IMG/VR virus record: IMGVR_UViG_3300031519_000059
Location: 1-42,150 of that record
Origin: a virus
Lineage: Duplodnaviria > Caudoviricetes
Direction: 5' to 3' (one strand)
Length of the DNA: 42,150 nt
The notes under the pieces were generated by a model. That model was not told where the DNA came from. It was given only the letters and a program-made list of their open reading frames with translations, and did no database searches. Positions 4,008-28,443 of this stretch are shown here, piece after piece (the stretch's first letter is position 1; each line of letters begins with the position of its first letter). Made by a program: the position numbers and the translations under genes.

Positions 4008-4516
4008 TGGAATTTAAAACCATGTCTACTCAGGAATTGAAGGCATTATGGCCTAAGCAATCTGATGAGCCTTTCCCTGCAAATCGTTCCTCAGACTCCC
4101 CTCTAAATCCTTTTTATCCTATTGATAATTATATTGTTTTATTAGATGGAGAAAATATTGTTGGGGGTATAGGATTTGGTAAAAAGGATAACTTTACTAT
4201 TAGGGGAGGGGCTTTTATTTCTCCTAAATATAGAAAACAGAACTTGTATAATTCAATTTCCGCAGAAGCAGATAAATTACCTACTCCCTTTATAGCGGGT
4301 TTTAGCAGCAGCATAGTTTCAAATAAGGAATGGATAGAATCTAACAAGAACAGGGGGTGGGATATTTCTCCCACCGATAAAGAATTAGGAGAGTATGCTG
4401 ATAACCCTACTGTAAAAGCATTCAAAGATTATTATGGCGACCATCCGAAAGGGGCTAAGTGGGCAGTTAAGGGATTGCCTTTATCTAAAATGTGGTGGAA
4501 GGTGATGCTAAGATGA
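4007..4516 (+). CDS. GNAT-family acetyltransferase-like protein
   Basis: beta-strands IVLLDGENIVGGIGF followed by motif-A-like FISPKYRKQNLY; C-terminal MWWKVMLR resembles the WxxILK tag. Confidence 0.6.
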   Translation: MEFKTMSTQELKALWPKQSDEPFPANRSSDSPLNPFYPIDNYIVLLDGENIVGGIGFGKKDNFTIRGGAFISPKYRKQNLYNSISAEADKLPTPFIAGFSSSIVSNKEWIESNKNRGWDISPTDKELGEYADNPTVKAFKDYYGDHPKGAKWAVKGLPLSKMWWKVMLR

Positions 4517-4767
4517 CTTGGCAAACTATTCTTAAAGGAAGATATGGTAAGATAAGAGATGCCATTGAAAATAAGTTAGTTGTGGATATTATTTCCATTG
4601 AGAGAAGAAGTGGTCATGATAGGATTCACTTAAGGAATCCTAAGACAGGAACAACTCGATTTGTAACTACATCTTCTTCTCCAAAGGTAAAGGGTAGATT
4701 TCATTTAATTGTTAGAGATGTTAGAAAGACTTTCAGGGATGCTGGCGAGGAACTTGATAAGCGGTGA
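4513..4767 (+). CDS. WxxILK-tagged small protein, possibly HicA-like (dsRBD-fold RNase)
   Basis: True start probably ATG 4513 after AGGTGA; MTWQTILK; ISIERRSGHDRIHLRNP...VTTSSSP resembles the HicA G-H pattern. Confidence 0.5.
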   Translation: MTWQTILKGRYGKIRDAIENKLVVDIISIERRSGHDRIHLRNPKTGTTRFVTTSSSPKVKGRFHLIVRDVRKTFRDAGEELDKR

Positions 4768-4771
4768 TATT

Positions 4772-4957
4772 ATGAATTGGCAAGATATTCTCAAGAAAGA
4801 AAAAACTTCAAGGCAAAAAGACCCTGCCTGTTATGATAAAGTTAAAGCAAAATATACTGAAGATGGCGGAACATGGCCTTCTGCGTATGGAAGTGGGGCT
4901 TTAGTCCAATGCCGAAAGGTTGGTGCTTCTAATTGGGGTAAAAAGAAAAAGAAGTGA
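4772..4957 (+). CDS. WxxILK-tagged small basic Cys-containing protein
   Basis: ATG 4772 after GGTGA; MNWQDILK; KDPACYDKVK...WPSAYGSGALVQCRK domain recalled from marine T4-like phages. Confidence 0.7.
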   Translation: MNWQDILKKEKTSRQKDPACYDKVKAKYTEDGGTWPSAYGSGALVQCRKVGASNWGKKKKK

Positions 4958-4962
4958 TTATT

Positions 4963-5202
4963 ATGTCTTGGAAAGAAATTCTCAAAGCCGAAGGCAATTT
5001 ACCCCAATGGTATAGAAAAAGGGCTAAAGGTGAAAAAGGAGAACCTGACGTAAAAGGTTGGGTTTCCTGTCAATCTTGTGAAGATGACAAAGCAGGGGTA
5101 AAACCTTGTGGTCGTAAAGATGCTTCTAAAGGAACTAAACAAAGATGTAGAGAAGATTGTGATGCTTGTAAAACGTATAAGAGACGGAAGGGAACTAAAT
5201 GA
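4963..5202 (+). CDS. WxxILK-tagged small basic Cys-rich (probable Zn-binding) protein
   Basis: ATG 4963 after AGTGA; MSWKEILK; WVSCQSC, KPCGR, CREDCDAC. Confidence 0.7.
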   Translation: MSWKEILKAEGNLPQWYRKRAKGEKGEPDVKGWVSCQSCEDDKAGVKPCGRKDASKGTKQRCREDCDACKTYKRRKGTK

Positions 5203-5221
5203 ATTATTTGGAGGTGGGAGC

Positions 5222-5527
5222 GTGAAATGGCAAAGCATTATTAAAACAAGAAATAGATTTAATAGCGTTTATTTTAAGGAAATTAAAGAAGAACTACTTA
5301 AGTTAGTAGAAGAAAGGCCAGTTGGTTCTGAAATTGAAATGTGGACGTTTAGAGAAGATTTGTTGAAGAATCTTAGAAAGCCCTCTAATGTAGAGAATAG
5401 AAAGTTTAATAGACATTTAACTAATTTTAAGCCACGAATCAATGGATGGCTACAAGGAGTAGGTGGTAATATAGTTGATAATTCTGGTCTAGTTCAAAAC
5501 TTTGGGAAAAAGAGGTTGAGAATATGA
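5222..5527 (+). CDS. WxxIIK-tagged hypothetical protein, paralog of the next gene
   Basis: GTG 5222 after GGAGGTGG; MKWQSIIK; RFNSVYFKEIKEELLKLV is shared with the next ORF. Confidence 0.7.
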   Translation: MKWQSIIKTRNRFNSVYFKEIKEELLKLVEERPVGSEIEMWTFREDLLKNLRKPSNVENRKFNRHLTNFKPRINGWLQGVGGNIVDNSGLVQNFGKKRLRI

Positions 5528-5841
5528 ATTGGGAAACTATTCTAAAGAAGCGCAGGTTTCAGAACGTATATTTTAAAGAAATAAAGGAAGCCCTGCTTAA
5601 AATAGTTAAGAATATGGAATCAGGAGCGAAGTTTGAAACTGCTACCTTAAAGGGTAAATTAGTGGAGGCTTTGAGAAAAGAAAGAACAGATGCCAATAAG
5701 GACTATAATAGGGGTTTAACTCGATTTAATACTGACAAAGCAGATGCATGGTTAAAGATGACTGGTTCTAGAATACTCCACGCATCAGGACTGTTAGATA
5801 CTACTACTAATCCAAGTTCTGTAATAAAGGTGAGACTATGA
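5524..5841 (+). CDS. WxxILK-tagged hypothetical protein, paralog of the previous gene
   Basis: MNWETILK; RFQNVYFKEIKEALLKIV; GAGGT RBS. Confidence 0.75.
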   Translation: MNWETILKKRRFQNVYFKEIKEALLKIVKNMESGAKFETATLKGKLVEALRKERTDANKDYNRGLTRFNTDKADAWLKMTGSRILHASGLLDTTTNPSSVIKVRL

Positions 5842-6116
5842 GTTGGGAAGAGATTCTTAAAAAGAAGCCATTCAAGGGCTACAGTAAAAAAACTAATTCT
5901 ACTAAAGGTGGGTTAAGTGCTAAAGGCAGAGCGCATTTCAAAAGAACGGAAGGTGCTAATTTAAAGCCACCAGTTACTGCAAAGAACCCATCTAAATCAG
6001 AAAAGAAAAGACGTGCTAATTTCTGTAGTCGCTCAAGAGGTTGGGGAAAAAAGAAGAATGGAAGATTAACATTTAGTCCTAGAGCAAGAGCCGCTAGAAA
6101 AAGATGGAAGTGCTGA
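5838..6116 (+). CDS. WxxILK-tagged basic protein (DUF6321-like domain of marine phages)
   Basis: MSWEEILK; GGLSAKGR...NLKPP...RRANFCSR...RWKC pattern; AGGTGA RBS. Confidence 0.7.
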   Translation: MSWEEILKKKPFKGYSKKTNSTKGGLSAKGRAHFKRTEGANLKPPVTAKNPSKSEKKRRANFCSRSRGWGKKKNGRLTFSPRARAARKRWKC

Positions 6117-6119
6117 TTC

Positions 6120-6776
6120 TTGTCTTGGAAAGATATTCTAAAAGTGGATGAGTTCTTCTTTTTACCTGAGCAACCAAAGGATAAAGGGGCATACAGTCCC
6201 GAGACCGACAAAGTACAGGTTAATCTTGCTGGATTTAATTTAGGTAATGAAGATAAAATAATAGAAGAGTTAGTTAGCACTATTACTCATGAGTATAGCC
6301 ATAAGGCAGCCCATCCAGAGGTTAAGCCATTACATGATAAACTAAAAAATGAAATGAGTAGGGGCATAGTCAATTATTTTTTTGATTTTGTAGAGAAGAA
6401 AGAAGAATTGAAAACACTTACTGTTCCAGCAATAAAAATTGCTAAACTAATTGCATATGAAGAAGCCTTTACCTACTCTACTGCAATGCGTCATCAAAAG
6501 AAACCAAACGTAAATGTGATTGGTTCAGCAATGGAATATACTTTAGAGACTATCAAAAGATTATTTGATAACCTATTGAAGGCATTTGAAGAAGAGGGGA
6601 ATGAAATAGTAGAAGAATTTGAAGAAATGATATCAAGTATCATGGGCAATATAGAAGGAACTATTATGAAGCCACTAAATGACATTGAGATGGAAGTAAG
6701 AAGATTTATTTCAAAAGGCAACAAACTGACTAGAAAAGAACACATGGATTATTTTATGGAGATGGTTGGTAAATGA
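6120..6776 (+). CDS. WxxILK-tagged zincin-like metallopeptidase
   Basis: MSWKDILK (TTG start); KGAYSP...VQVNL strands; TITHEYSH (HExxH) with a downstream YEEAF as candidate third ligand. Confidence 0.7.
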   Translation: MSWKDILKVDEFFFLPEQPKDKGAYSPETDKVQVNLAGFNLGNEDKIIEELVSTITHEYSHKAAHPEVKPLHDKLKNEMSRGIVNYFFDFVEKKEELKTLTVPAIKIAKLIAYEEAFTYSTAMRHQKKPNVNVIGSAMEYTLETIKRLFDNLLKAFEEEGNEIVEEFEEMISSIMGNIEGTIMKPLNDIEMEVRRFISKGNKLTRKEHMDYFMEMVGK

Positions 6777-7537
6777 CCGAAGAATTTAATCTAGAACACC
6801 GAATGGGTTGGCAAAATGTGTTGAAGAGAAAGATTGAAACATTGGCTGATTATACCAATGCTAGCCCTGAAGAGAGGCAAAACTATCATAGTGCAAAACA
6901 GGCCGTTTATCAAAGGCGTTTGATAGCATTAAGGAATTCGATAGCGAATGTTGGTGAAACTAGCCCTAACATTCCTTTAGAAGAAGACATGAGAGAATTG
7001 CAAGAAATCAGAAATTTTCATGGAAGACAACATACAAGACTTAAACGTAAAATTAACAAACCAGACTATTTTTCTCCAGAATTAGAAGAACAACGAAAAA
7101 AAGTTAAACTATCAACAACTCCTAGAGGTCTTAGAAATCTTCGCCCCTATTTAACATTAGAAGAATACCAAAAATTAGATGCGGGACAAAAAATAAAGTA
7201 TCATGCTGAGAAAGCAGACTATGGCAAGGGAGAAGTAACTGAAGATAAGGCATTTCACGGAAGAATGCTTTCTAGATTGAGAAACAAATCAAATTTACCC
7301 ACTTATCCTACTCCAGAGTTAGGCGGTGAAACTGCCTATGGTGTAACTTATACTAAAGAAGAATATGATAGTATGTCTAGAGAAGATAAAGGAAAATATC
7401 ATAGTAGGATGGCAACAAGATTTAGACGAGAAAATAATGTAGAATTGCTAAAATTTCACAAAAGAATGGATGGAAGAATTAGGAGGAATAGCAATCTACC
7501 TACATTTTATTCACCAGAACATCAGGAGGAACAATAA
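6773..7537 (+). CDS. Tagged protein with three internal repeats
   Basis: Internal MGWQNVLK at 6803; three units of Y..(L/M/A)....(K/R)..YH...FH.R...R(L/I)....P....PE. Confidence 0.75.
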   Translation: MTEEFNLEHRMGWQNVLKRKIETLADYTNASPEERQNYHSAKQAVYQRRLIALRNSIANVGETSPNIPLEEDMRELQEIRNFHGRQHTRLKRKINKPDYFSPELEEQRKKVKLSTTPRGLRNLRPYLTLEEYQKLDAGQKIKYHAEKADYGKGEVTEDKAFHGRMLSRLRNKSNLPTYPTPELGGETAYGVTYTKEEYDSMSREDKGKYHSRMATRFRRENNVELLKFHKRMDGRIRRNSNLPTFYSPEHQEEQ

Positions 7538-8955
7538 TGGATTCCGAAGCATTTAACTTAGAACATCAAATGGATATGGAGTTATCAAAGAACTCTTTCC
7601 CTTATTTCTTTGAACACGTTTTAGGTTGGGAGTTTGCTAAACATCAGGAAGAATGGCTAGAGTTGATGGGAGATACTCAAAGAAGTGTTATCATTTGCTC
7701 TAGAGGTCATGGTAAGTCTGTATTTATGCACAGTTGGGTTGTGTGGAATTTAATCTTCCAACCCCCACCATATCAGATGTTATACATTTCTTCTAACCAA
7801 AAACAGACTATGGTTCACATGAGAGACATAGATAAGTTATTTACTAATCCTCTATTGAAGAAATACAAACCTGCTAGAGGATGGGCTATTGGGAACATTA
7901 CATTAACTAATGGTAATCAAATCTTAGAGCGTTCCGTTGGTTCACAGATTCGTGGACTTCACCCTCAAGAGATTATCATTGATGACCCTTTGAAAGAGTT
8001 CAGTATGACAGGTATTCAGAAGGTAACAGATTGGTTCTATGGGGATATGATTCCTACTCTACACCACTCCGCATCATTAAGAGTCATAGGAACTCCATTC
8101 AGTTATACTGATATCTATGCCCAGTTGGGTGAAAACCCTGCATATACTCTTAGAACCTATGCTTGTCTTAATTCTCTTAACGAACCCTTGTGGCCTAGTC
8201 GTTGGGATTATGATTCTCTTATGGCAAGAAAAGCAGAAATTGGTTCTCTTAAGTTTACAAGAGAATATATGTGTGTGCCTATTTCTACTGGGACATCTCT
8301 TTTTAATCCTGAATATCTAGAGAGTGCTAAAAATAAAGACTTAGTTTTGAAACCAATGAGAAGAGAGGGCATGAAATACTTCGTAGGTGTAGACCCTGCT
8401 ATCTCTACTGATGGAGACTACAATGTTATTACCGTTATAGAGATGGATGCTGATGAAAACAAATCAATTGTATATATCGACAGAGCAAAAAATGTACAGT
8501 TCAGAGAGAACATACAGAAGGTAAAACTGATAGGTCAAATGTTTAGACCCGAAGCGATTCTTTTTGAAACCAATACCTTTGCTAAATCCTTTACTCAAGA
8601 ACTAAGACAGGTGGCTGATTTAAACATTCATGACTTCAACACTACTAGAAGAAAGAAGCAAGAGATTATCTTAAATCTACAAATGACACTAGAAAATAAT
8701 AAACTAAATTTTCCTTATGGTAATGAAGAAAGTAGAAGAACGACTTCTGCTTTAATCGAAGAAATGTCTATGTTTGCTATTACTGAAAGGGGAAAGTTTG
8801 AAGGAGTGGGCGCACACGACGATATGGTGATGAGCCTCGCTTTAGCCAATGCCGCCACATATCAAGCAACAGATAACTTTGTCTTGTTGGATGATATGGG
8901 TATATTTGATGAGCCTAAAGCAAGACAACAATTGGGACTGGGTTTGAACTTTTAG
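7537..8955 (+). CDS. terL: Terminase large subunit
   Basis: Walker A CSRGHGKS, Walker B IIIDD, coupling motif IGTP, nuclease motifs VGVDPA and HDDMVMSLALA. Confidence 0.95.
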   Translation: MDSEAFNLEHQMDMELSKNSFPYFFEHVLGWEFAKHQEEWLELMGDTQRSVIICSRGHGKSVFMHSWVVWNLIFQPPPYQMLYISSNQKQTMVHMRDIDKLFTNPLLKKYKPARGWAIGNITLTNGNQILERSVGSQIRGLHPQEIIIDDPLKEFSMTGIQKVTDWFYGDMIPTLHHSASLRVIGTPFSYTDIYAQLGENPAYTLRTYACLNSLNEPLWPSRWDYDSLMARKAEIGSLKFTREYMCVPISTGTSLFNPEYLESAKNKDLVLKPMRREGMKYFVGVDPAISTDGDYNVITVIEMDADENKSIVYIDRAKNVQFRENIQKVKLIGQMFRPEAILFETNTFAKSFTQELRQVADLNIHDFNTTRRKKQEIILNLQMTLENNKLNFPYGNEESRRTTSALIEEMSMFAITERGKFEGVGAHDDMVMSLALANAATYQATDNFVLLDDMGIFDEPKARQQLGLGLNF

Positions 8956-8963
8956 GTGATATT

Positions 8964-10622
8964 ATGCCAACTGCTGAACAATACGATAAGGCTTCTGAAC
9001 AGATGTCTCGCTTGGCTGAATTAGACAGAGAAGCGAAGGATGCCCAATCAGAAGTAGAAGAAGAACTAGACGTTGAGTTTGAGGATGTGGAGATGAAAAG
9101 TCTTCTATCCAATGGAAGAGTTCTTTCTGAATTAGAAGAGATTAACAAACTATCCGATACTTACAAGATAAACGCCACTGATGCTAAAAAGATGCTAAAC
9201 AATTTCCCTACAGAATATGTAGTAGATGATAAAAATATTCCTGACCTTATCAAACAAATGAGACTATCAAGACGTTCCTTAAAAGGAGAACATAGGGATA
9301 AGATGTCGAAGGCAATTGATACAATGATTGATGCTTATACCGACCACTTGCATAAGTGCTTTGATTCTATTCATTGGTTATCTAATTATAGAGAACCATT
9401 CCTCAAGATGAGATTCAACGAAAAAGATTTGAATAAACTCAACAAGATGAAAGATTCTGAAAGCAGAAGAGAAGTTATTGATTCTCTATGCAAATACTGG
9501 GAAGCAGAACTAGAGCAGAAGGGTATGCCTTACTCATCAGACTATTCTGTTCTCTCTAGAAAAATGTCTATTGCTAAGAAAGGATTTAGAAATGCTATAG
9601 CCAAAATAACTAACCAGTCTATCACTAAGTCTAAAAGAGAAAGACAAGAAGATTTTGTTCTAAAGGCAGTGTGTGAAATGCAAGGAATTACTGCTCAACA
9701 AATCTATGATAGAATGCCAGATAATATGTTAAAATCCACAAGTCCTCAAGTTATTTCTAAGATGGTAAAGAAGTTAGATATTGTTTCTGTAGAGGGTTCC
9801 TATTACAAACTCCCCTCCGAGATAAAAAAGAATATATGGGCTTACTGTGCTGCATTTATTGATTCAGATGGTTACATTACTTTAGATAGAAATATGAATC
9901 CTAGAGTTGGTTTAGTCGCTACTGGGCAGAGAGGTAGAGCATTCATGGAAGAGATGCATAAATCTATTGGGTTTGGCCGTATGCACTTAGACCAAAAATC
10001 ACCACAAGATACTCGACTAATCAATAGATTAAACTTTTATTCTCAAGCAGATGTAACTAGTTTACTAACAAAGTGCCTACCGCATTTTAGATTAAAGAAA
10101 GGTAATGCTCAACTACTACTAGAATTAATTCGCATGAAAAAGGCATACAAAAAGGCTGATTGGTATAAGGGTCGTTGTGAAGAGATATTTAAATTAATGA
10201 AGTGGGAGAATCATAAAGACCATGTTGGTTTTGATTGGGCTAAAGAAAGTATTAATCTAGATGACATTCAAAAATACAAAGATAACTGCAAAGTGTCTAT
10301 GATGGATTCTATGGAACAAATCGGTGGAATGGTCATTAAGAATGACCCAACAAGAGATGATGAGGAGATTCCTAAACAAGAAATTAAAGATTATATTTAT
10401 CGAGTAAAGGACGCTATGAGAAAGAAAACAATGAGTCGGGAAGATGAACAAGTTGTTTTAGAACTTCTAGAATTTTTAGAAAAAACAATGAAGGTTTATG
10501 AAAAAGGGGAAGTTCCTCTTTTTAGTTATTCTTATCTTATGAGTAATATAGAAGAAACTCTAAAGAAATATAAAATGGATAAGGCTTCCTTATTCTCATC
10601 AAAACTGGCTATGGAGGAATAG
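8964..10622 (+). CDS. Multidomain protein with a LAGLIDADG endonuclease-like domain
   Basis: WAYCAAFIDSDGYI LAGLIDADG helix, later LPHFRLKK; preceded by a helical region and a wHTH-like segment (GITAQQIYDRMP...SPQVISKMV). Confidence 0.85.
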   Translation: MPTAEQYDKASEQMSRLAELDREAKDAQSEVEEELDVEFEDVEMKSLLSNGRVLSELEEINKLSDTYKINATDAKKMLNNFPTEYVVDDKNIPDLIKQMRLSRRSLKGEHRDKMSKAIDTMIDAYTDHLHKCFDSIHWLSNYREPFLKMRFNEKDLNKLNKMKDSESRREVIDSLCKYWEAELEQKGMPYSSDYSVLSRKMSIAKKGFRNAIAKITNQSITKSKRERQEDFVLKAVCEMQGITAQQIYDRMPDNMLKSTSPQVISKMVKKLDIVSVEGSYYKLPSEIKKNIWAYCAAFIDSDGYITLDRNMNPRVGLVATGQRGRAFMEEMHKSIGFGRMHLDQKSPQDTRLINRLNFYSQADVTSLLTKCLPHFRLKKGNAQLLLELIRMKKAYKKADWYKGRCEEIFKLMKWENHKDHVGFDWAKESINLDDIQKYKDNCKVSMMDSMEQIGGMVIKNDPTRDDEEIPKQEIKDYIYRVKDAMRKKTMSREDEQVVLELLEFLEKTMKVYEKGEVPLFSYSYLMSNIEETLKKYKMDKASLFSSKLAMEE

Positions 10623-10800: not shown

Positions 10801-12456
10801 ATGTCGGAAGAAAAGCGTAGATTTAGCATTGCAAACTTGTTTAGACGCACTACTCCAAAACCTGCTGATAGGTCTATCTATAACATAGGCATACAGGAGA
10901 GACAACAACAAACCTTGATGACGGCTCCAGTTATCTATCACATAGTACAGAACTCAGTTATTGCTAGAACCTGCATTACTCAGTTAAAGCAAGAGATATT
11001 TAGAAGAGGCTATATTTGGGAGAAAGCGTTTGAGGCACATTGTTTAGATTGCCAAAAGAAACACAAAAGACCAGTCAAAGAATGTTCTAGATGTGGGAGT
11101 TATAATCTAAAAACTCCTGATGTAAAACAATTAGAATATGCTGAAAACTTTATTGAAGGTTATGTCAATAAGTCTGAGCAATTGTTCATTGATGTGTTCA
11201 AAGAATTAGAAGATGATTTGAATATTATGGATGATGCATATATTGTCTTAGTTAAAGAATATTTTATAGACGGCAATCAAAAAATTCGTATGCATCGAAT
11301 AAAAGAAATCTATAGAGGCGACCCTGTAACAATGGCTATCTACTCTGATGAAGTGGGACAACGAGGAACAAAAGGATTTACTTGTATAAACCATAGAGGT
11401 ATGTTATCTATGGAACCGTATTCTAGTTGTGAAGAATGTGGAAGCAAAATGTACCCTGTTCATTATGTTAATAGAGTAGCGGGACAAGAACAATATTTCT
11501 TGAAAGGGGAGGTTCTACACTTTAGTAAGTACAGTCCTTCTAGACTCTATGGGCTATCTCCTGTTATTACTCTCTATAGTCATCTTACTACTCTATTGGC
11601 TATGGAACAATATGTTAATTCGTCTTATACAAAGAGCAGAATGCCTAGAGGATTACTAGCAGTTCAGACTCGCAATATGGATTCTATGCGTTCTTTCTGG
11701 CGTTCAGTTAAAGAGAAGATGGAAACCGACCCTCACTTTATTCCTGTTATGGGAATAGAAGCAGAAGGTGGTAAGGGTTCTGTTGAGTGGATTAAGTTCA
11801 TGGATAGTCTGAAAGAGATGGATTATACCGCAGTTAAGGATGATTTGCGAGATAGAATCTCAGCGTTCTATGGAGTAAGTAAAATCTTTATGGCAGACAA
11901 TACTACAAGTGGTGGATTAAATAACGAAGGTATGCAAATCCTTGTTACTAATAGAGCAGTTCAAATGGCTCAGAATGTTTACAATAACTATGTATTCCCA
12001 TTCCTTACTAAGGAGTTTGGCATTACTGATTGGAATTTAAAACTCCCTCCTAGTGAAGAAGAAGATGAAATAGCCGTTCTTCGTAAGAGAGAAATTGAAG
12101 TTAATATTGCCGCTTCTACAAAGAATCTAGGATTTGAAGTAGAAATGGATGAAGATGGTAACTTTACATTTAAGAAGCCTGAACCAGTAGAACAACCTAA
12201 CCCCGAAGGGGGAGAGGGTGGCGAAGAAGGTGAACAGGCGGATTTAGACCCTTATGCAGGAACAAATATTGATGCTTCACAAATGGGTCAAATGCAAGAA
12301 CAGATGATGCAACAAGGTTCTACTCCACAAGAAAATCCACCCGCTACTAGAAATAAGGCTAGAATGGCAGTTGGCCCCGATAAAAGATTACAAGGATTAC
12401 CACAAGATGCAGGGAATCAAAACGTAGATAGAAGAAGCGAAAGAAGAGTTGGTTGA
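10801..12456 (+). CDS. Portal protein
   Basis: Position after terL; EVLHF...LYGLSP, MPRGLL, RISAFYGV patterns of HK97-type portals; ATG 10801 after GAGGGGTG; acidic/Gln-rich disordered tail. Confidence 0.9.
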   Translation: MSEEKRRFSIANLFRRTTPKPADRSIYNIGIQERQQQTLMTAPVIYHIVQNSVIARTCITQLKQEIFRRGYIWEKAFEAHCLDCQKKHKRPVKECSRCGSYNLKTPDVKQLEYAENFIEGYVNKSEQLFIDVFKELEDDLNIMDDAYIVLVKEYFIDGNQKIRMHRIKEIYRGDPVTMAIYSDEVGQRGTKGFTCINHRGMLSMEPYSSCEECGSKMYPVHYVNRVAGQEQYFLKGEVLHFSKYSPSRLYGLSPVITLYSHLTTLLAMEQYVNSSYTKSRMPRGLLAVQTRNMDSMRSFWRSVKEKMETDPHFIPVMGIEAEGGKGSVEWIKFMDSLKEMDYTAVKDDLRDRISAFYGVSKIFMADNTTSGGLNNEGMQILVTNRAVQMAQNVYNNYVFPFLTKEFGITDWNLKLPPSEEEDEIAVLRKREIEVNIAASTKNLGFEVEMDEDGNFTFKKPEPVEQPNPEGGEGGEEGEQADLDPYAGTNIDASQMGQMQEQMMQQGSTPQENPPATRNKARMAVGPDKRLQGLPQDAGNQNVDRRSERRVG

Positions 12457-12457
12457 T

Positions 12458-12682
12458 ATGTGGAAAGATATAATTAAAACAGATGATGTAGAACGTCTAT
12501 TTGAAAAGAGAGAAGAAGAAGCGTGGAATTCAAAAAATGAAAAGGCTATTCAATTTTATAGAAGATTAGAAAAGAAACTAGATTATTATTTAAAACATAA
12601 CGAACCCTCTGTAAAAGAGATGCTATACCGAATATTACAAAAACCATATACTCCTGACTTAGATAAAGAACTAGAAATTTAA
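12458..12682 (+). CDS. WxxIIK-tagged small hypothetical protein
   Basis: ATG 12458; MWKDIIKT. Confidence 0.65.
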   Translation: MWKDIIKTDDVERLFEKREEEAWNSKNEKAIQFYRRLEKKLDYYLKHNEPSVKEMLYRILQKPYTPDLDKELEI

Positions 12683-15934: not shown

Positions 15935-18442
15935 ATGAAACTCGGCATGGTAGAGAAGGACAAACAGCCTTCTTTTGAAATCCTAAATCTCTTTGAGAAA
16001 GTCCGAGTGGCTTATCTCTCAGCGAGACAAGACCCTAAAGAATACGGTGGTCGTTGGCGTAAAGCAGTTGAATTGATTGAAGAAACCTTTGAAGATTTAG
16101 ATGCCGCAGGTAAAGAGATTAAAAATTATGTTAGCGTTAAGGAACTAAAAGACGAAGAGGTAAACAACCCTGAATCTTCTAGTGCTAAAACTCTTTACGA
16201 AAGTGTGAAGATGTTAAGATATGCTTCTGATTTAGTCGATGACCCATTCGCTAGAAGGTTCAAATATGAAGTTCTAGAAGAACTGCTATCCAGTCCTGAG
16301 TCTATGGTGAAGTTTGTTCACTATGCTCTAAGAAATGACGATAAAACTCTGCCCGATGAGGTCTACGAGATTAAAGACATGAAACCCGATGCAACTACGC
16401 AGGGTCTTACTGGGCTAGACCTAGAATCGGGAGATATTGCCCTCTATATTATTGAGCATTACGGAGACGGAAAAGACTCAAAGCGGGTAGAAAAGGAAGT
16501 TAATAAGGCTATGGGGATGTTAGAACTCTTAATGCTCTCTAGATACAAAGAAGAGGATTTAGACGAACTTAAGGATATTGAGAAGTCTGATGAAGAAAAG
16601 TCAGAAACAGAAAAATCATTAAGTGATTTCATTGTTCCTAATAAACCAATGTATAGAATATTTGATATTAAAGACATAGAAGAACTAAAAGGATTTAGTG
16701 GTGAATGGTATGTTCAAGAAAAGTATGATGGTATGAGAATACAATTACATAAAATAGATAACTCTATCAAAGTCTTTTCTTATAATAAGAAGAACATTAC
16801 AGATAAGTGTGAAGACATAGTAAAGGAATTAAAAGACAAACACTTTGGGAATTGTATTCTAGATGCTGAATTAATTCTATTTGATAATGATGAACCATTA
16901 CATAGAGCAGATACTATTGCTCATGTATTTAAAAACAAATACAAAGATGCAATCCTTAAGTGCCATGTATTCGATATTATGCGACATGATGAACAGAACC
17001 TATTAGATGAAGAACTACAAGACAGAATGACAATTCTGTTCAATAATTATTCTATACATTCATCTGATACTCTGAATTTCCCTTCAAAGAAAGATACTAG
17101 ACAAGCAGATAACCTAAAGGATATTGATGAATACGCTAAGAAGATTATGGAAATGCCTACATCAGAAGGAGTAGTGATTAAAGACGCTACTTCTACATAC
17201 TATGTAGGAACTAGAAAGAATCCTAAATGGATTAAATGGAAGAAGTTTGTAGACCTAGATGTTATTGTACTAGACAAGTCTAAGACAAAGAGTAATCTAT
17301 ATTCTTATACTCTAGGCATATCTACTAATGAAGAAGAAGGTAAATTCATTGAAGAACTTCAGGGTAAGAAATACATGAATGTAGGTAAGGCACTTAATAC
17401 TAAAACTAAAGTAGATATTGGGAGTATTGTTAGAGTACAGGTAGATGAAGTTAAGAAAACAGGTGAAAGATACACTTTGTTTTCTGCTAAGGTTATTGAA
17501 GTTCCCGAAGTAGAAGAACCCGATAAGGAAGTAACACTAGAGTTACTATCGCAAGGAACAAAGAAATCATTAAACTACTCTATAGAAGCACTAAAGAAAG
17601 GAGTGAGAGTAACCGACCATATTCACGGAGAGGCTACTGTTATTATCAAATCTAATATGGATGGCTTTACTATCTATGGTTTTGAAGAAGATAACCTAAT
17701 GTCTAAGAACGCACTTAAAGACATTGATATGTGGAAAGCACAAGCAGAAGAAATAATGAAAACTAAAAGAGGCAAACTTACTGTTGCTATATTTGATTTC
17801 TTAAAGAGAATGGGTGCTAAAACGGTTAAAGAAGTACATAACTATTTAGTGGAAAAGCAAGGTTCATTGTATGAAGATATCCTAGATAGCCAATATTCTG
17901 AACTACAGGAATGGGCTGAGAAAAGAGATGGTATAGAGTTTGAAAATAAAAAACTATTTGCGAATCCTTCTAAAATTATGGCTAGTGAGGAAATAAAGAA
18001 ATACAAAACTCCTGATGAGTATAGAAATGGAGAATTTAAAATATATATTAGAAAGGACAGTAACATCAACATAGTTATGAAACTCGGTGATGATTCAATA
18101 AATTGGCTAGTAGACTTACAAGACGAAGAAGAACTCTTTGATATGTTTGGTAAAGCGGGTAAATATCCTGCCGAAGTTGCTAAGACATTTGATAGAGAAA
18201 AGGTCATTGATTCGGGTTCAGTAGAACTGGGTGTTCAGAGACACGGCTATCATGAATACTTTTTGAAGGGAAATAAGTTTGAAACTAAACTTCATATTAG
18301 AGTTATACCTGTTAAAGGAAATAAAATGTGGCTTGCGTGGACTGGTTTTGAGCAGAAACCAGTAGAAAAAGATACTGATGACGGCATTTGGAATATCTAC
18401 GAAGATAAGAATAATGGCCTAAGAATCCCAAGAGAAGAATAG
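15935..18442 (+). CDS. lig: ATP-dependent DNA ligase with long N- and C-terminal extensions
   Basis: Motif I EKYDGMR, III ILDAEL, IIIa HVFDIM, IV EGVVIKD, V WIKWKK, followed by an OB-fold region (LDVIVL...VGKAL). Confidence 0.92.
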   Translation: MKLGMVEKDKQPSFEILNLFEKVRVAYLSARQDPKEYGGRWRKAVELIEETFEDLDAAGKEIKNYVSVKELKDEEVNNPESSSAKTLYESVKMLRYASDLVDDPFARRFKYEVLEELLSSPESMVKFVHYALRNDDKTLPDEVYEIKDMKPDATTQGLTGLDLESGDIALYIIEHYGDGKDSKRVEKEVNKAMGMLELLMLSRYKEEDLDELKDIEKSDEEKSETEKSLSDFIVPNKPMYRIFDIKDIEELKGFSGEWYVQEKYDGMRIQLHKIDNSIKVFSYNKKNITDKCEDIVKELKDKHFGNCILDAELILFDNDEPLHRADTIAHVFKNKYKDAILKCHVFDIMRHDEQNLLDEELQDRMTILFNNYSIHSSDTLNFPSKKDTRQADNLKDIDEYAKKIMEMPTSEGVVIKDATSTYYVGTRKNPKWIKWKKFVDLDVIVLDKSKTKSNLYSYTLGISTNEEEGKFIEELQGKKYMNVGKALNTKTKVDIGSIVRVQVDEVKKTGERYTLFSAKVIEVPEVEEPDKEVTLELLSQGTKKSLNYSIEALKKGVRVTDHIHGEATVIIKSNMDGFTIYGFEEDNLMSKNALKDIDMWKAQAEEIMKTKRGKLTVAIFDFLKRMGAKTVKEVHNYLVEKQGSLYEDILDSQYSELQEWAEKRDGIEFENKKLFANPSKIMASEEIKKYKTPDEYRNGEFKIYIRKDSNINIVMKLGDDSINWLVDLQDEEELFDMFGKAGKYPAEVAKTFDREKVIDSGSVELGVQRHGYHEYFLKGNKFETKLHIRVIPVKGNKMWLAWTGFEQKPVEKDTDDGIWNIYEDKNNGLRIPREE

Positions 18443-18475: not shown

Positions 18476-19687
18476 ATGAGGCAAATGACACTTCTCATGA
18501 AGCGTGACACTAATGACTTTAAAATAATAAAGTCAAATGATGAGTTAATGATAGGTGGATATGCTTCAATAGAAATCGTAGACAAACAAAATGATTTAAT
18601 CACACTCAAAGCACTACAAGAAGCAGTAAACAAATACATGGAGAACCCGAAGTTTAGAAACGTAATGACAAATCATTCAAATGTTCAAGTCGGGGAAGTA
18701 GTAAAATCATATAGAGATAAAAATGGAAAGATATGGAAAACCGAAGTGGATGATGTAGGATTTTTTGTAGTAATAAAATTAAGAGACGATATAGAAAAGG
18801 CCAAAGAAATTAATAGAGGCGTTAGAAAAGGTTCATTGAGAAGTTTTAGTATTGGAGGACAAGCATTACAAAAAGTAAAGAAAAGTCATCCAGAATTAGG
18901 GCAATACAATGAAATAAGTAAATTAGAACTACATGAAGTAACAATTTGTGAAAAAGGAATAAACCCAGAAGCACGATTTGATATTTTAAAACAAGACAAA
19001 AAAACAAAAACAAAAAAGGAAGTTAAAGATATGACCAAACTAGAAAAAGCATTAGAAGAATTAGACGCATTGATGTCAGAAGTCAATACGTTGAGAAAAG
19101 AAGACGAAGAAGAACTGGAGCGTATGGCTATGCCCGAAGAAGAAAAGATGATGGAAGAAGAGAAGATGGAAGAAGAAGAAGCAATGTCTTACAAAGAACT
19201 AGAAGATACTGAAAAAGCAGTAGTTTCTACTCTTGATGGAGCAGGTGTTGAAATCGGAGAACCTGCTAACAGAATCATCATTGAAAACGGAAAGCCAAAA
19301 GCATCCGATATGCCAGTTGTAAAGGCTTTCGGGAACAACGAACTAGAAACTCTAGATTTGTCTGTTGGAAACATTGAGAAGGCTTACGAAGCATTCCGTC
19401 AAGAACAACTTGAAAAGTTGGCTTACGATAACTTGCAAAAGTCCTTTGCAAATAGATTCGCTTCTGAAAAGAACAACCGTGAGGATGTTCTCGCTAAGTC
19501 TCGATATGATGCGGCTTCTGAGATTGCTTCTCTTAAGAGCGAATTTACACAACTAAGAAAGTCTTTGACTGCTGAAAAGGAAACAATCCTAAAGGCTCAA
19601 GCAGAGGCTTCTATCACACTCCCTTCAATGGAAGATTTGGCCGAAATGGAATGGTCGGATATTCACAAGATGGCAGGAGGTCTTTAA
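18476..19687 (+). CDS. Prohead protease (HK97-type) fused to a C-terminal scaffolding domain
   Basis: IGGYAS..VDKQND, NH (catalytic His), RSFSIGG (catalytic Ser), LHEVTIC..GINPEA; acidic coiled-coil C-terminal half; directly upstream of the MCP. Confidence 0.9.
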   Translation: MRQMTLLMKRDTNDFKIIKSNDELMIGGYASIEIVDKQNDLITLKALQEAVNKYMENPKFRNVMTNHSNVQVGEVVKSYRDKNGKIWKTEVDDVGFFVVIKLRDDIEKAKEINRGVRKGSLRSFSIGGQALQKVKKSHPELGQYNEISKLELHEVTICEKGINPEARFDILKQDKKTKTKKEVKDMTKLEKALEELDALMSEVNTLRKEDEEELERMAMPEEEKMMEEEKMEEEEAMSYKELEDTEKAVVSTLDGAGVEIGEPANRIIIENGKPKASDMPVVKAFGNNELETLDLSVGNIEKAYEAFRQEQLEKLAYDNLQKSFANRFASEKNNREDVLAKSRYDAASEIASLKSEFTQLRKSLTAEKETILKAQAEASITLPSMEDLAEMEWSDIHKMAGGL

Positions 19688-19688
19688 G

Positions 19689-21023
19689 ATGACAGGATAT
19701 ATAAACACAATTGCAGATTTGGAAGCACAAACATACGGACTATCAGTTGGCGGAGCAAATAATATGCTTCTAAAGACTGCTGGAGCAGTTACTGGTATTC
19801 ATGGAGGACATGATGCAGCAACACAAACTTCTCCTTTAACAGGAATTGCAGGTAATCTGTACAATGTCCTTTACGGACAAAAAGTTTGGTCTATGCTAAA
19901 CCGTGAAGTAAATGCTCTTTCTACTCTATCAAAGAGACCATACACTTCTAGTGGATGGAGAGTTCTATCAAAGAGACCTGCTGGTGGAAGCGGTAATTCC
20001 CATGCATTTACTCGTACTGGAACAGATTTGGTTGGTACAGATGCTCCTAGACTAGATATGATTGGTGGTGTTCCTGAGAACGCATCTCTTTCTACAAGCG
20101 CAGATGGTCTAATTGCTATTGCTCCTGAATACTCTACTCTCTTTATGAGTCCTAAAACCGTTGCTCACCAATTCGATTTCAGTGAACTTGCAATGGAAAT
20201 GGCTCAAATTGATGATGGTATTGGCGATATTAGAGCGCAAATGCGTGAAGATATGGGTAAGCACCATGCAGAATCACAGAATCTAATGCTAGTTACTCCT
20301 TTGGAAGCATATCTAGACACAGATAAGTCAAATGCTTCTTCTGGGATAGCAAGAAACTACACCTCTCTATACAAGGTTATTTCTTCAAATGCAGAACTAG
20401 ACCAAATGGACACAGATAACTTCCCTGTTGGTTCAATTACTGGTGATATTACAGATGCTTACCATATTTACGGCTCAAACCGTGATAGTGCTTCTTTCCT
20501 AGATTGCACACTTGATTTCGGTGATGGATATGCAAGTGGAGATTCTCGACCATTTACACTAACAATCCTTAACGGGCTATTGCGACAACTCCGTGAAAAC
20601 GGTGGTTCACCAAAGGTTATTCTAACAGGATATGATACACTTCAAACTCTATCTGACCTCTTGCAAAGTCAAGAGCGATTTATGGACAGAAAGGAAGTAG
20701 TACCAACTGTAAACGGAGTTCGTGGAGTAAAGGGTGCAGAAGTTGGATTTAGAGTAGCAACATACTACGATATTCCAATTATCCCTGCTATCTCAATGCA
20801 AAGCACTTCTGCTGATTCAGGAACTATCAGTGATATGCTATTCCTTGATACAGACCATCTATGGCTTGCAGTTATGAAACCTACACAATACTTTGAAGAC
20901 GGTATCGCTAATGGAAACCCATTCGGTGTTGGGCTACTAGGAAACAGAGCATTGTATCGTACAATTGCAGAAGTTGGTTGTTCATACTTTAAGGGTCAAG
21001 GTAAGATTACCAACCTTAAGTGA
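19689..21023 (+). CDS. Major capsid protein (HK97 fold)
   Basis: 444 aa after the protease; LSKRPYTSSGWRV, SPKTVAHQFDFSE, ATYYDIPII, GKITNLK end, resembling archaeal tailed-virus MCPs. Confidence 0.88.
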   Translation: MTGYINTIADLEAQTYGLSVGGANNMLLKTAGAVTGIHGGHDAATQTSPLTGIAGNLYNVLYGQKVWSMLNREVNALSTLSKRPYTSSGWRVLSKRPAGGSGNSHAFTRTGTDLVGTDAPRLDMIGGVPENASLSTSADGLIAIAPEYSTLFMSPKTVAHQFDFSELAMEMAQIDDGIGDIRAQMREDMGKHHAESQNLMLVTPLEAYLDTDKSNASSGIARNYTSLYKVISSNAELDQMDTDNFPVGSITGDITDAYHIYGSNRDSASFLDCTLDFGDGYASGDSRPFTLTILNGLLRQLRENGGSPKVILTGYDTLQTLSDLLQSQERFMDRKEVVPTVNGVRGVKGAEVGFRVATYYDIPIIPAISMQSTSADSGTISDMLFLDTDHLWLAVMKPTQYFEDGIANGNPFGVGLLGNRALYRTIAEVGCSYFKGQGKITNLK

Positions 21024-22096: not shown

Positions 22097-22489
22097 ATGG
22101 CGGCATTGAATACAGATACACGACTAGTAATGACTATTCTATTCGTTGGCGTACTAAGCGGTGCTAACGTATTCTTCTATGCTCAATACGGGGCTACGTT
22201 CCCATATACTCCTTTAGCCCATGCTGCCCTATTCGGTTTAATGACCATTGGAAGCGTTATGGTAATGAAAGCATTATTTGATTTGGCTCTTAATGATAAA
22301 ATCGAGATGTGGCTACTTGATAGAAAGATTGCGTCATACTGGGAAAGAAAGTCCAGAGATGAGCAACAAAGACAAAAGATGCGTGAAAGTGCAAGACAAT
22401 TTGGTGTTTCTACTCCTTTTTATCAACCACAAATGCAACAAGAAGATGATAATTCAGTAGGAAGTGAATTTTTAGCCACCCTACAATGA
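22097..22489 (+). CDS. Membrane protein with two predicted TM helices and a cytoplasmic coiled coil
   Basis: Hydrophobic LVMTILFVGVLSGANVFFYA and ALFGLMTIGSVMVMKALF, then a charged Q/R-rich helix. Confidence 0.75.
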   Translation: MAALNTDTRLVMTILFVGVLSGANVFFYAQYGATFPYTPLAHAALFGLMTIGSVMVMKALFDLALNDKIEMWLLDRKIASYWERKSRDEQQRQKMRESARQFGVSTPFYQPQMQQEDDNSVGSEFLATLQ

Positions 22490-22498
22490 GGTGGTTAA

Positions 22499-22711
22499 AT
22501 GGTCGTAGGCGACATACTCGGTTTCTCCGATTCTGATTATGCTTATAATCAATCAAGAGCGCATTCCGCAGATATGTTCTTTCAGAGAATGAGAATGTGG
22601 TTTTGGGGAAGTTGCTTCACATTGTCAGCATTCTTAATAGGTAATATTATGGGCGTTTTTGACATCAATATTATGGGCTATATTGTAGATAAGTTATGGA
22701 ATAGTTGGTGA
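22499..22711 (+). CDS. Small membrane protein
   Basis: GAGGTGG RBS; hydrophobic WFWGSCFTLSAFLIGNIMGVF; C-terminal amphipathic segment. Confidence 0.7.
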   Translation: MVVGDILGFSDSDYAYNQSRAHSADMFFQRMRMWFWGSCFTLSAFLIGNIMGVFDINIMGYIVDKLWNSW

Positions 22712-22715
22712 TTAA

Positions 22716-23378
22716 ATGTCATTGATGACAGGTTTTGCAATTCTCGTTGGTGAAGCAGTCATTGGCTTTTGGAAGAAAGTTCACGCTATTAACTTTGGAG
22801 TATATGGTGCTACAATGGTTGGTAAAACTACTTTAGGCCACCAATTAAGAACTAGAGGAGAAGTACCACAAATAAATCAAAGAACTGTTGGTTTGCACAG
22901 AGCCAGTAGAAAAAACATTAAAATTGATGGAAATGTACATACTATTAAGAGTGCAGATATTGGTGGAGAAGCGATTTACTGGAAAGAATGGGAAAAGGAT
23001 ATGAAAAGTAGGAAACCTAAATACATTATTTTTATGATAGACCATCGACATTTAGATAGTACGGCGAATCTAGACCATCAACTAGCATGGAAATACTTAG
23101 TAGATTCCATAATTTCAAGTACATGGTCAAATGGAAAAAAGAAAAGAGATTCAGATTACCCAATAGCAATAGGAATATGGGCTAATAAATATGATATATG
23201 GGGAGAGAAATATAAATCAGAAAAGGATATAGAAAAGCATGAGATATTTGAGCCTTTTAGTTATGGTATGAGAAAGTTAAATGATAAAGGAATACCATGT
23301 TTTAAATATATAGTTTCAGCAAAATCAGAACCAGAGATGGTTTACAGAGGAATTACTACGATGATAAAGGATTATTGA
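22716..23378 (+). CDS. Small Ras-superfamily GTPase (Arf/Sar1-like)
   Basis: G1 GATMVGKT, G2 RTVG, G3 DIGGE, IIFMID strand, G4 NKYD, G5 SAK; hydrophobic/amphipathic N-terminal helix. Confidence 0.88.
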   Translation: MSLMTGFAILVGEAVIGFWKKVHAINFGVYGATMVGKTTLGHQLRTRGEVPQINQRTVGLHRASRKNIKIDGNVHTIKSADIGGEAIYWKEWEKDMKSRKPKYIIFMIDHRHLDSTANLDHQLAWKYLVDSIISSTWSNGKKKRDSDYPIAIGIWANKYDIWGEKYKSEKDIEKHEIFEPFSYGMRKLNDKGIPCFKYIVSAKSEPEMVYRGITTMIKDY

Positions 23379-24040
23379 TGATTATGTACCAACAACAAAT
23401 AATAGGACAAGAAATGAATGGATTTAACCCAATGTTAAATCCCATTGACCAAGCAAGAACAGCAGGACAAGTTACTGAATATAAGTTTATTTCAGTTAAG
23501 CCGAAAGCACAGAAGAAAGAACTAATTAAAGTTCTATTACCCGAGTATAAGAGTTTTTTATTCTTTTCGGTAGGTAAAAAATTCAATCTAAAAGATAGAT
23601 GTGTAGTGTGCGGGATGCATCATATTTGGGAAGCAGGAGATTACTTACGTCCTCCTATTCCCTTAGAGAAAGTAACGAAAAGCAGACCACTAAAAGGTAC
23701 ATATTGCCCTAAACACTCTGCTATGTTTATGCAGTTTGAGATGCTAGAACAACAGATATTGGCAGACAAACATGGTTTAGATTTCAAAGCCTTTAGACCA
23801 AAGATGCCAAAGATGCTTACATCAGCCCCAGTCAAAAATCTTTCTAAGCAAGATATCGTTGCTCTAACTGCGGCAGGTTATTTTATTAAGCCACCCACGC
23901 TAGGAGATAATAGGTCAGCCACTAATGAAGCAATAGAAATTGTCGGAGAAATAAACATATTAACCGATAGACTAAATTATCTTATGATTCATCAAGGGGC
24001 TAGAGCAGAAGAACCAGTAACAGAAGTGGTGGAAGAATAA
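23375..24040 (+). CDS. Zn-finger-containing hypothetical protein
   Basis: CVVC and YCPKH ligand pairs; overlaps the GTPase stop. Confidence 0.7.
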   Translation: MMIMYQQQIIGQEMNGFNPMLNPIDQARTAGQVTEYKFISVKPKAQKKELIKVLLPEYKSFLFFSVGKKFNLKDRCVVCGMHHIWEAGDYLRPPIPLEKVTKSRPLKGTYCPKHSAMFMQFEMLEQQILADKHGLDFKAFRPKMPKMLTSAPVKNLSKQDIVALTAAGYFIKPPTLGDNRSATNEAIEIVGEINILTDRLNYLMIHQGARAEEPVTEVVEE

Positions 24041-24693
24041 TGTTAGGTACTAGCAATAAAACAGTTTTAGGTGCAGTTCAAGCACAAAATGATGCACAAT
24101 TTAAGAACGTAAATAATTTACTTTCTTTGCAAGATAATCATGTCGAAGAGTTCTTTCAATATCATGGCGAATTGTTCCTAAGAGCATTTGAGAAAATGAT
24201 GGAAGATGTTACTGAAAGAGTTGTAAGTCAAATGCTTGCTAAATTGGCTTTTAAACAAGAGGGTGGTAGACTATCCGTTGATGCAGATTCCTTAAGAGAA
24301 TACGAGAGAATTACACAAGAAAATATAGAACTAGATATACAGCAGATTCTGGCTACTGCTCTTAATTCAGAAGTTATTAATCAAAGAAAGATGGCTAAGC
24401 AACAATATCTTGAGTCTCAAGGATTTAGTGGTGGTGGCATACAACAAATAACACAACCAACCGCAGGTATGGCAGTAGCAGGATTAACAGGACAAACACA
24501 ACAATATCAACAAATGCAAGGAGCAGTAGGTAATGGTTCAGGTTATCCAATCCCTCCATCGGGAACAGATGGATATGGCCGCCCTTACTGGATTGACCAA
24601 CAAGGACAGATGAGTTACGAGCCTCCTCAAAGTGGATTAGGGCTAGGTTCTGCAATCCAAAAGGGTGCTGCATGGGCTAAGTGGTTAATGTGA
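24040..24693 (+). CDS. Helical protein with a Gln/Gly-rich low-complexity region and an amphipathic C-terminus
   Basis: Coupled start; QQ/GG tract; ends GLGSAIQKGAAWAKWLM. Confidence 0.72.
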   Translation: MLGTSNKTVLGAVQAQNDAQFKNVNNLLSLQDNHVEEFFQYHGELFLRAFEKMMEDVTERVVSQMLAKLAFKQEGGRLSVDADSLREYERITQENIELDIQQILATALNSEVINQRKMAKQQYLESQGFSGGGIQQITQPTAGMAVAGLTGQTQQYQQMQGAVGNGSGYPIPPSGTDGYGRPYWIDQQGQMSYEPPQSGLGLGSAIQKGAAWAKWLM

Positions 24694-27972: not shown

Positions 27973-28443
27973 ATGTGGAAAAACATATTAAAAACTCCTG
28001 CTAAAGATGTAAGGTATAAAGTTACTCAAGAAGATATTGACGAGATGCGTGAACTTAGAGAATCTGGTAATTCTTATCAGGCTATTGCTAATCATATGGC
28101 TGACAAGGATAAGAAGATTAGCACAGCAACTGTTGTTTATTGGACTAATGAAGAATCGAGAAGAAAACAAAGGGAAAAAAATGCTAAAAGAAGATATGAC
28201 CCTGATTCAGAAGAAAATAGAAGAAGAATTAAGAGAGACATGGATAAGCGAAGAAAGAATTTTGCGGCTGATTCAGAAATGGAAACAAGACATAGGATTC
28301 AAGGTGCTCTTGATGAGAAAAGACACCCAAGACATAGCGTAAAGGTAAATCCTAAATCGGATAAACGTATGAATATAGATAATGCAAGGCGTTTGTTAGA
28401 AAGTGGAAAACTCCAAAGAAAGAATAGAAAGATGAAGGATTAA
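27973..28443 (+). CDS. WxxILK-tagged basic helix-turn-helix protein
   Basis: MWKNILKT; VTQEDIDEMRELRESGNSYQAIA...ISTATVVYW HTH pattern; R/K-rich tail. Confidence 0.7.
   Translation: MWKNILKTPAKDVRYKVTQEDIDEMRELRESGNSYQAIANHMADKDKKISTATVVYWTNEESRRKQREKNAKRRYDPDSEENRRRIKRDMDKRRKNFAADSEMETRHRIQGALDEKRHPRHSVKVNPKSDKRMNIDNARRLLESGKLQRKNRKMKD

Follow-up and report, generated by a model that had tools for sequence, protein, structure and literature searches.

Genomic context of the viral GTPase

The locus examined here raises the question of what a small GTPase does in a tailed archaeal virus, where its gene lies between the capsid and neck genes. The window (the whole stretch of DNA analyzed, 42,150 nucleotides, positions 1 to 42,150 of IMG/VR record IMGVR_UViG_3300031519_000059) comes from a record representing a 45% complete virus genome and contains genes for terminase, portal, DNA ligase, prohead protease, capsid, tail-tube and tape-measure proteins (Table 1). 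A GTPase homolog that is 80% identical was found in Poseidoniales virus YSH_150918, which together with the capsid matches indicates that the window fits the Magrovirales of the ICTV profile, viruses with no cultured host (PMC10768690). The current study identified a real, conserved family of viral small GTPases situated in a five-gene membrane module that is apparently unpublished.

Other genes of the head region include one for an 835-aa protein with an ATP-dependent DNA ligase domain (15935-18442), placed within the head module between portal and prohead protease, and one for a 552-aa protein (8964-10622) between terminase and portal, which has a weak internal endonuclease-like match (phrog_5046, E 8e-5).

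Table 1. Features of the window discussed in the text, with positions in the window.
Feature	Positions	Strand	Description
Terminase large subunit	7537-8955	+	Context gene; query for independent selection of relatives
Major capsid protein	19689-21023	+	Magrovirus type; cultured matches only HCTV-1, HVTV-1 and their relatives
2-TM protein	22097-22489	+	130 aa; TM helices predicted at ~10-28 and ~43-61; charged Gln-rich helical C-terminal tail; first in block
1-TM protein	22499-22711	+	70 aa; hydrophobic segment in C-terminal half; conserved polar N-terminal motif
GTPase gene	22716-23378	+	220 aa; motifs G1-G5; N-terminal membrane-type helix 2-22; long interswitch of Ras/Rab length; Arf-like switch-II Trp92
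N-terminal helix of GTPase	22716-22781	+	First half apolar, second half amphipathic, then basic residues
Cys/His protein	23375-24040	+	~218 aa from ATG at 23384; no known fold found
Gln/Gly protein	24040-24693	+	217 aa; helical N-terminal domain, low-complexity linker, Gly-rich hydrophobic C-terminus

Conservation and distribution of the GTPase gene

The GTPase ORF begins with ATG, preceded by a ribosome-binding-like GGTGA, and numerous stops interrupt the opposite strand. All five G motifs reported in the initial annotation, which was made from the sequence alone, were found as described: G1 GATMVGKT at residues 31-38, G2 RTVG (Thr57), G3 DIGGE (Asp81, Glu85), G4 NKYD at 157-160 and G5 SAK at 201-203. 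They occur in order on a single small G domain, the arrangement that defines TRAFAC GTPases of the Ras superfamily. A total of 370 homologs were found; among the 120 listed, G1 was retained in 120, RT[VI]G in 118, and DxGGE, NKxD and SAK in 119 each. Gly2 was present in only three of these 120 and is absent from the window protein, as the annotation had noted. Residues G31, G36, K37, D81, G84, W92, N157, K158 and D160 were invariant in 83 aligned viral sequences drawn from all lineages. Such motif conservation among homologs indicates that the GTPase is real, beyond chance. The gene is under purifying selection (median dN/dS 0.049 for 44 unsaturated pairs out of 600 random pairs). Its conservation also exceeded that of the capsid protein, a comparison biased by the picking of loci through GTPase similarity and not used as evidence here. 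Sequence searches alone barely detect the GTPase, with no Pfam match at E<=0.01, no PHROG match at 0.001, and a best PDB sequence match to ARL8B at E 0.27.

To avoid bias from selecting on the GTPase itself, relatives of the window were also chosen by their terminase. Forty-six of the 80 terminase relatives were longer than 30 kb, and 45 of these were examined. The GTPase was present in all 45 records, including all 16 that were at least 90% complete, and was single-copy in 44, the exception being a 185-kb record. For close relatives of the window, the GTPase is a core gene. RNA from eight marine runs contributed small shares; contigs assembled for four runs fell largely on the capsid gene, with no more than fragments of the block.

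When 1.84 billion representatives were searched with a GTPase profile, 80 matches were returned. Viral GTPases were divided into lineage 1 (loci L001-L080), lineage 2 (L083-L162), lineage 3 (L167-L179) and lineage 4 (L163-L166), which are not the groups of Philosof. The gene is unusual among tailed viruses, as first supposed, since 50,697 phage records yielded no match. In HVTV-1 no homolog was detected by an alignment that finds magrovirus-type contigs at 1e-72. A GTDB scan restricted to lineage-1 patterns recovered one locus, in a Maricaulis MAG (G001); three of its contigs hold strong viral-GTPase matches (L082, L187, L192, L193) and are read as probably mis-binned magrovirus contigs. Among 401 genomes of the same phylum, weak matches were found in four others, within longer ORFs.

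Beyond the viral lineages, the nearest sequence relatives are unnamed prokaryotic GTPases of 200-280 aa with hydrophobic N-termini (E 3e-12 to 9e-4), placed mostly in bacteria by the ESM Atlas. Several of them (P0279, P0307, P0309 and the P0316 group) share DxGG[ED], an IIFMxDH strand and NKxDxW with the viral protein. A 41-row tree united the viral lineages with four unplaced proteins in a clade (96/91), the sister of P0279, P0307 and P0309 (96/90). Four archaeal Arf-like domains, themselves on a long branch, stood separate from this clade; the tree was built without eukaryotic Arf, Rab or ArfR sequences. Loci of the P0316 group (L182-L185) differ from the viral block in having no TM pair and a different downstream partner gene (three of four loci, the fourth being too short). 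The two-gene unit of this group (L182:112-1616, L184:2725-4098 and L185:2920-4283) is carried on metagenome contigs that are probably bacterial. Its first gene encodes an N-terminally extended small GTPase of the DVGGE type and its second a partner of 216-226 aa that lacks a Pfam match and, in two cases, also an NCBIfam match; the unit may be an undescribed GTPase-partner pair.

Relationship to Arf and other small GTPases

The AlphaFold model of the GTPase (pLDDT 79.5) matched small GTPases in Foldseek at E ~1e-7, with Rab at the top, and gave VIA Z scores of 13-15 to small GTPases with an rmsd of ~3 A over ~160 residues. Assignment to the Ras-superfamily small GTPases is supported by this predicted fold. 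A translation-factor GTPase was considered and rejected, as GTP_EFTU was matched only weakly, in 2 of 51 members, and the top fold matches were all Ras-like; on this point the annotation's reading as a small GTPase stood.

Whether the protein is also Arf/Sar1-like, as originally labelled, is less straightforward. Arf1, Arl8 and Arl1 ranked first by VIA, by a small margin (Z 15.1-14.8, with Arf1 at 15.1 and an rmsd of 3.0 over 161 residues), followed closely by SRbeta (14.2), HodArfR1 (14.0), G-alpha-i (13.8), Rag (13.7) and Rab (13.4). The weak Pfam matches of 51 aligned members (E<=0.1) were to MMR_HSR1 (50 members), Roc (42), Ras (36), SRPRB (31) and Arf (2). The viral GTPase resembles the Arf family (Arf1, Arf6, Arl1, Arl8, Sar1) and the Asgard ArfR proteins HodArfR1 (PDB 8OUK) and GerdArfR1 (8OUM) in its fold, its N-terminal helix, the DxGG of G3, and a Trp seven residues past the catalytic position. 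The two ArfR proteins are, in the available text of the preprint describing them, likewise without Gly2 (bioRxiv 2024.02.28.582541).

The determinants of the Arf switch and toggle given in the available text of PMC2063696 are an N-terminal helix, a short interswitch and the signature wDvGGqxxxRxxW, with ARL4 as a long-interswitch exception within the family. An amphipathic N-terminal helical extension is predicted in the viral protein, where the model places a helix at residues 2-22. The hydrophobic and amphipathic character first ascribed to it is divided between its halves, the first being apolar and only the second amphipathic (moment 0.55-0.60 in all four lineages), and 1.5-3 basic residues end the helix after the amphipathic stretch in every lineage. 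Glu13 is invariant in lineage 1, the only lineage in which the hydrophobicity of the helix is borderline for a TM span (KD19 1.62 versus 0.82-1.19 elsewhere).

The other two determinants separate the viral protein from Arf. Its interswitch is not of the short retractable kind, with 24 residues from Thr57 to Asp81 compared to 19 in ARL8B and in the archaeal Arf-like P0320, and 22 in H-Ras. The K-to-D distance is 44 in lineage 1 and 54-57 in the other lineages (one 75), compared to a reference value of 37. The signature is incomplete: among 177 viral loci, the final W is found in all 177 and GG in most, but the leading w in none, and the Arg is found only in lineage 3 (12 of 13 loci), with Trp in its place in all 160 loci of lineages 1 and 2. 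Further differences from Arf are insertions of ~40 residues, an identity of only 15-20%, a separate clade in the tree (in which Arf was represented by archaeal Arf-like domains only), a location in a viral operon, and a variable catalytic residue. The Glu noted at the catalytic Gln position is Glu85 in the window and E in 80 of 80 lineage-1 loci, but it is not a trait of the family. Lineage 2 has Q in 54, E in 18 and D in 6 (78 of 80 loci listed), lineage 3 has D in 8 and Q in 5, and lineage 4 has H in all four.

The label Arf/Sar1-like is accordingly right only in part, applying to the helix at the N-terminus and to the switch-II Trp, and membership in Arf/Sar1 was not borne out by the Foldseek ranking or by Pfam, where Arf trails Roc and Ras. 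JGI automatic naming also calls some homologs 'GTPase SAR1 family protein'. The protein is better filed as a separate viral family that is nearest to the unnamed prokaryotic GTPases.

Other families share individual traits with the viral GTPase. The interswitch hairpin is Ras-like in length and look, and Rab and Ras proteins provided the top Foldseek matches. The Rab and Ras families have a C-terminal Cys prenylation motif. The viral GTPase has no such tail, ending in TTMIKDY, and differs further in its N-terminal membrane helix, its GG-type G3 and its occurrence in a prokaryotic virus. Small GTPases are already known in giant eukaryotic viruses from the mimivirus Rab (PDB 5XC5; Z 13.2). Compared to SRbeta, the viral GTPase has a similar hydrophobic N-terminal segment followed by basic residues, in addition to the fold and Pfam likenesses given above, but its anchor is borderline as a TM span, in lineage 1 only, and no SRalpha-like partner was detected.

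The available text of PMC10927574 describes ArvA (OapA, HVO_3014) as driving vesicles in Haloferax, with ArvB (DUF2073) and ArvC (DUF2072) encoded directly downstream. ArvA, as described there, is likewise a small GTPase of archaeal context with an N-terminal helix and a membrane link, and its gene opens a short operon that includes a zinc-type protein. It differs in being cellular and in having no upstream TM pair described. No DUF2073 or DUF2072 match was found for the downstream genes (Pfam, E<=0.01) or the lineage-3 partners (E<=1), and the link to ArvA drawn in the annotation holds only as an analogy.

These comparisons bear on a role like that of Arf, Sar1 or ArvA, in which GTP would expose the helix, the membrane would bend, and vesicles would carry virions or cargo out without immediate lysis. 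The Arf/Arl lead in VIA (Z 15.1-14), the universal switch-II Trp, the signature Arg of lineage 3 and the vesicles driven by ArvA are consistent with such budding, but a toggle would need a shorter interswitch (K-to-D 44-57 versus 37), Rab, Rag, SRbeta and G-alpha fall within ~2 Z with Rab first in Foldseek, and no ArvB, ArvC or coat-like partner was detected. On balance this role is unlikely.

A five-gene block with membrane proteins

The GTPase is the central gene of a block with the order 2-TM protein, 1-TM protein, GTPase, Cys/His protein and Gln/Gly protein. In this respect the description of the GTPase as stand-alone applies to its domain architecture and not to its gene, which is tightly packed among conserved neighbors. 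Wherever a lineage-1 locus had sufficient flank (56 of 56), all five genes stood in this order, uninterrupted in 30 loci and with unrelated genes inserted in 26. In the 80 loci of lineage 2, the Cys/His and Gln/Gly genes were present in all 80 and the TM genes in 78 and 79, with the misses at contig ends. The two downstream genes are present among the lineage-3 loci listed, and the five-gene layout occurs in all four loci of lineage 4. The block is kept across four deep lineages. Its flanks differ: it follows the capsid gene in lineage 1, where it is co-oriented between capsid and neck genes, and a chaperonin gene in lineage 4; since the block is kept while the flanks change, it moves as a unit.

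Additional small genes accompany the block in some lineages. An 80-aa two-TM sixth gene follows the Gln/Gly gene in 77 of 80 lineage-2 loci (e.g. L134:9352-9606) and in several lineage-3 loci (e.g. L169:8340-8585), and in 23 lineage-2 loci a 60-aa gene separates the Cys/His gene from the GTPase gene.

The 2-TM protein (dN/dS 0.024) may be holin-like, its topology fitting the holin pattern of a small TM protein with a charged C-terminus. Counterparts of both TM genes in other lineages match by position and topology only (hhalign ~1% for the 2-TM and 10-16% for the 1-TM protein). For the Cys/His protein, hhalign scores of 95-96% to lineages 2 and 4 show homology between lineages, and an invariant Cys with near-invariant Arg and His residues suggests a zinc site. 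Foldseek gave no match to its model (pLDDT 74.9, pTM 0.53) at E<=0.001, the best VIA Z was 4.1, and ESM Atlas matches were all under 0.9; the protein is a candidate regulator or effector. The Gln/Gly protein, likewise homologous between lineages (hhalign 94.7% to lineage 4 and 49% to lineage 2), is a candidate membrane-inserting effector. A WW-like motif occurs in 35 of 39 lineage-1 rows and in none of 23 other rows of this protein; a WW domain is not claimed, as Pfam gives no support. No holin or endolysin family was found among the 45 ORFs of the window, and no block gene matched a known lysis family.

Many unrelated small ORFs of the window begin with a W-x-x-I-L-K-type tag (4492-7537, 12449-12682 and 27973-28443). 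The tag is also found on almost all genes inserted in the GTPase block (L001, L004-L007, L013 and others), and similar internal ILK sites occur in the protease/scaffold (18476-19687). It is possibly a capsid-loading or cleavage signal. The five block proteins are without it at their N-termini.

Phage pilot and ejection proteins resemble Gln-rich helical proteins with Gly-rich hydrophobic ends. This likeness to the Gln/Gly protein, and the position of the block next to the capsid gene in lineage 1, would suit a block that is packaged and acts at entry, the Gln/Gly and TM proteins forming an ejection or pilot channel gated by the GTPase. Such a role is quite unlikely, given that the five genes are without the tag of their neighbors (itself only a putative loading signal) and that the block also occurs in an element without detectable tailed-virion genes, described next.

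The block in a group-D-like element

One of the four lineages corresponds to magrovirus group D and shows no match to terminase, portal, HK97 capsid or tail genes. A 110-kb record that is 79% complete (G448, loci L274-L279) carries homologs of the GTPase, Cys/His and Gln/Gly genes (E 1e-23, 6e-5 and 7e-8, respectively). Searches of this 79% complete record with the window terminase, portal, protease, capsid, neck, tube and tape-measure proteins gave no tblastn match at E<=0.05. It encodes a primase, PolB, RNA polymerase A, a resolvase, a thermosome and a small HerA/FtsK-like ATPase, a gene set equal to that given for magrovirus group D. The available text of PMC5434244 lists PolB, thermosome, resolvase and RNA polymerase A for that group, in which no morphogenetic block was found. 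As G448 is incomplete, its head genes could be located in the portion that was not sequenced.

The RNA polymerase A of G448 has 1611 aa, and L277:3750-12133 (-) is a region of note. The HerA/FtsK-like ATPase has a 51% identical homolog in G451. The element also encodes a very basic Arg/Lys-rich protein and two unannotated proteins of 294-314 aa, and may hold a tailless virion module; PDB sequence searches of the G448 proteins gave nothing useful on jelly-roll identity.

The window capsid type was also found in one lineage-3 and two lineage-2 records. The lineage-4 record tested was not of this type, and none of four lineage-4 records matched the window terminase.

The presence of the block both in a tailed magrovirus and in G448, which has no detectable head or tail genes, indicates that it likely serves a shared step at the host membrane and not particle building. 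The two kinds of element probably share a host group. That a group-D-like element has the block argues against a GTPase role in head or tail assembly. An assembly factor, or a soluble role without membranes to which the TM neighbors are incidental, might be suggested by the gene's place between capsid and neck genes in the window and by the insertions that split the block in 26 of 56 loci, yet it is very unlikely: in other lineages the block has moved away from the capsid gene with its order intact, G448 has it but gives no head or tail match, and nothing like it was detected in HVTV-1 despite a related capsid protein there.

Possible roles of the block

With confidence somewhat short of even, we favor the reading that the virus-specific GTPase is a late GTP-gated trigger at the host membrane for progeny exit. 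Expression would be late, judging from the co-oriented position between capsid and neck genes. Its N-terminal helix likely serves to dock the GTPase on the host cytoplasmic membrane, where the protein would lie beside the 2-TM and 1-TM proteins. Gated by GTP, it would probably trigger the block membrane proteins to breach or remodel the membrane, and progeny would leave. The membrane-active output may be supplied by the Gln/Gly protein, through its Gly-rich C-terminus, together with the holin-like 2-TM protein. The occurrence of E, Q, D or H at the catalytic position, depending on lineage, suggests a weak intrinsic hydrolysis needing a partner, and the Cys/His protein is a candidate for regulating it. 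Given the long interswitch, an Arf toggle probably does not couple membrane docking to nucleotide state; the GTPase may instead stay membrane-bound and switch partners.

Several observations weigh on the exit reading. Egress proteins of tailed archaeal viruses are called completely uncharacterized in the available text of PMC10791045. Points against it are the lack of a match to known lysis families, the borderline TM hydrophobicity confined to lineage 1, and the interruption of the block in 26 of 56 loci; a lysis gene could also lie elsewhere, the window being 45% of the genome. The related, lytic halovirus HVTV-1 has no homolog, and the block is therefore not a general requirement for tailed archaeal viruses.

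The same membrane anatomy would also suit a block that remodels or polices the envelope in another way, by excluding superinfection, arresting division, anchoring a site of replication or assembly, or countering a membrane-based defence of the host. The sharing of the block by tailed and group-D-like elements, probably of one host group, is consistent with this, as are the bacterial GTPase-centred conflict systems (DO-GTPase), which have a Walker-B Glu and membrane partners according to the available text of PMC7159879. At the position compared with the conserved Walker-B Glu of DO-GTPase/GAP1, all 80 lineage-1 loci have E and most other loci Q, D or H. Such systems have a GAP1 gene downstream and often paired GTPases; no DO-GTPase or GAP1 Pfam match was found here, and 44 of 45 records had a single GTPase. 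A core gene that is single-copy and under strong purifying selection seems unlike fast-changing conflict genes, and in lineage 1 the gene sits within a late structural operon. Envelope control of this kind is consequently rather unlikely.

Extending the exit reading to both kinds of element, the block would be a GTP-timed, virion-independent module for archaeal egress or membrane remodelling, common to tailed magroviruses and probably tailless group-D elements; this is possible though doubtful.

Implications for magroviruses and small GTPases

Literature searches found no published account of a magrovirus GTPase or of this block. The term 'GTP' is absent from the main texts of PMC11706807, PMC10160649 and PMC5434244, the supplements of which could hold annotation, and a GTPase is not mentioned in the ICTV profile (PMC10768690).

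Magroviruses infect abundant ocean archaea (Marine Group II), and the block provides a concrete candidate for their exit, open to testing even with no host in culture. Group-D elements, which have the block as well, are thereby linked in function to magroviruses even though their virion differs or is unknown. The viral GTPases add to the prokaryotic small GTPases a branch that mixes Arf-like and Rab-like traits, a mixture that bears on the origin of membrane-trafficking GTPases. If the exit reading is true, a eukaryote-like small-GTPase switch would control exit or membrane remodelling in prokaryotic viruses, which would answer the question of how these get across the archaeal membrane.
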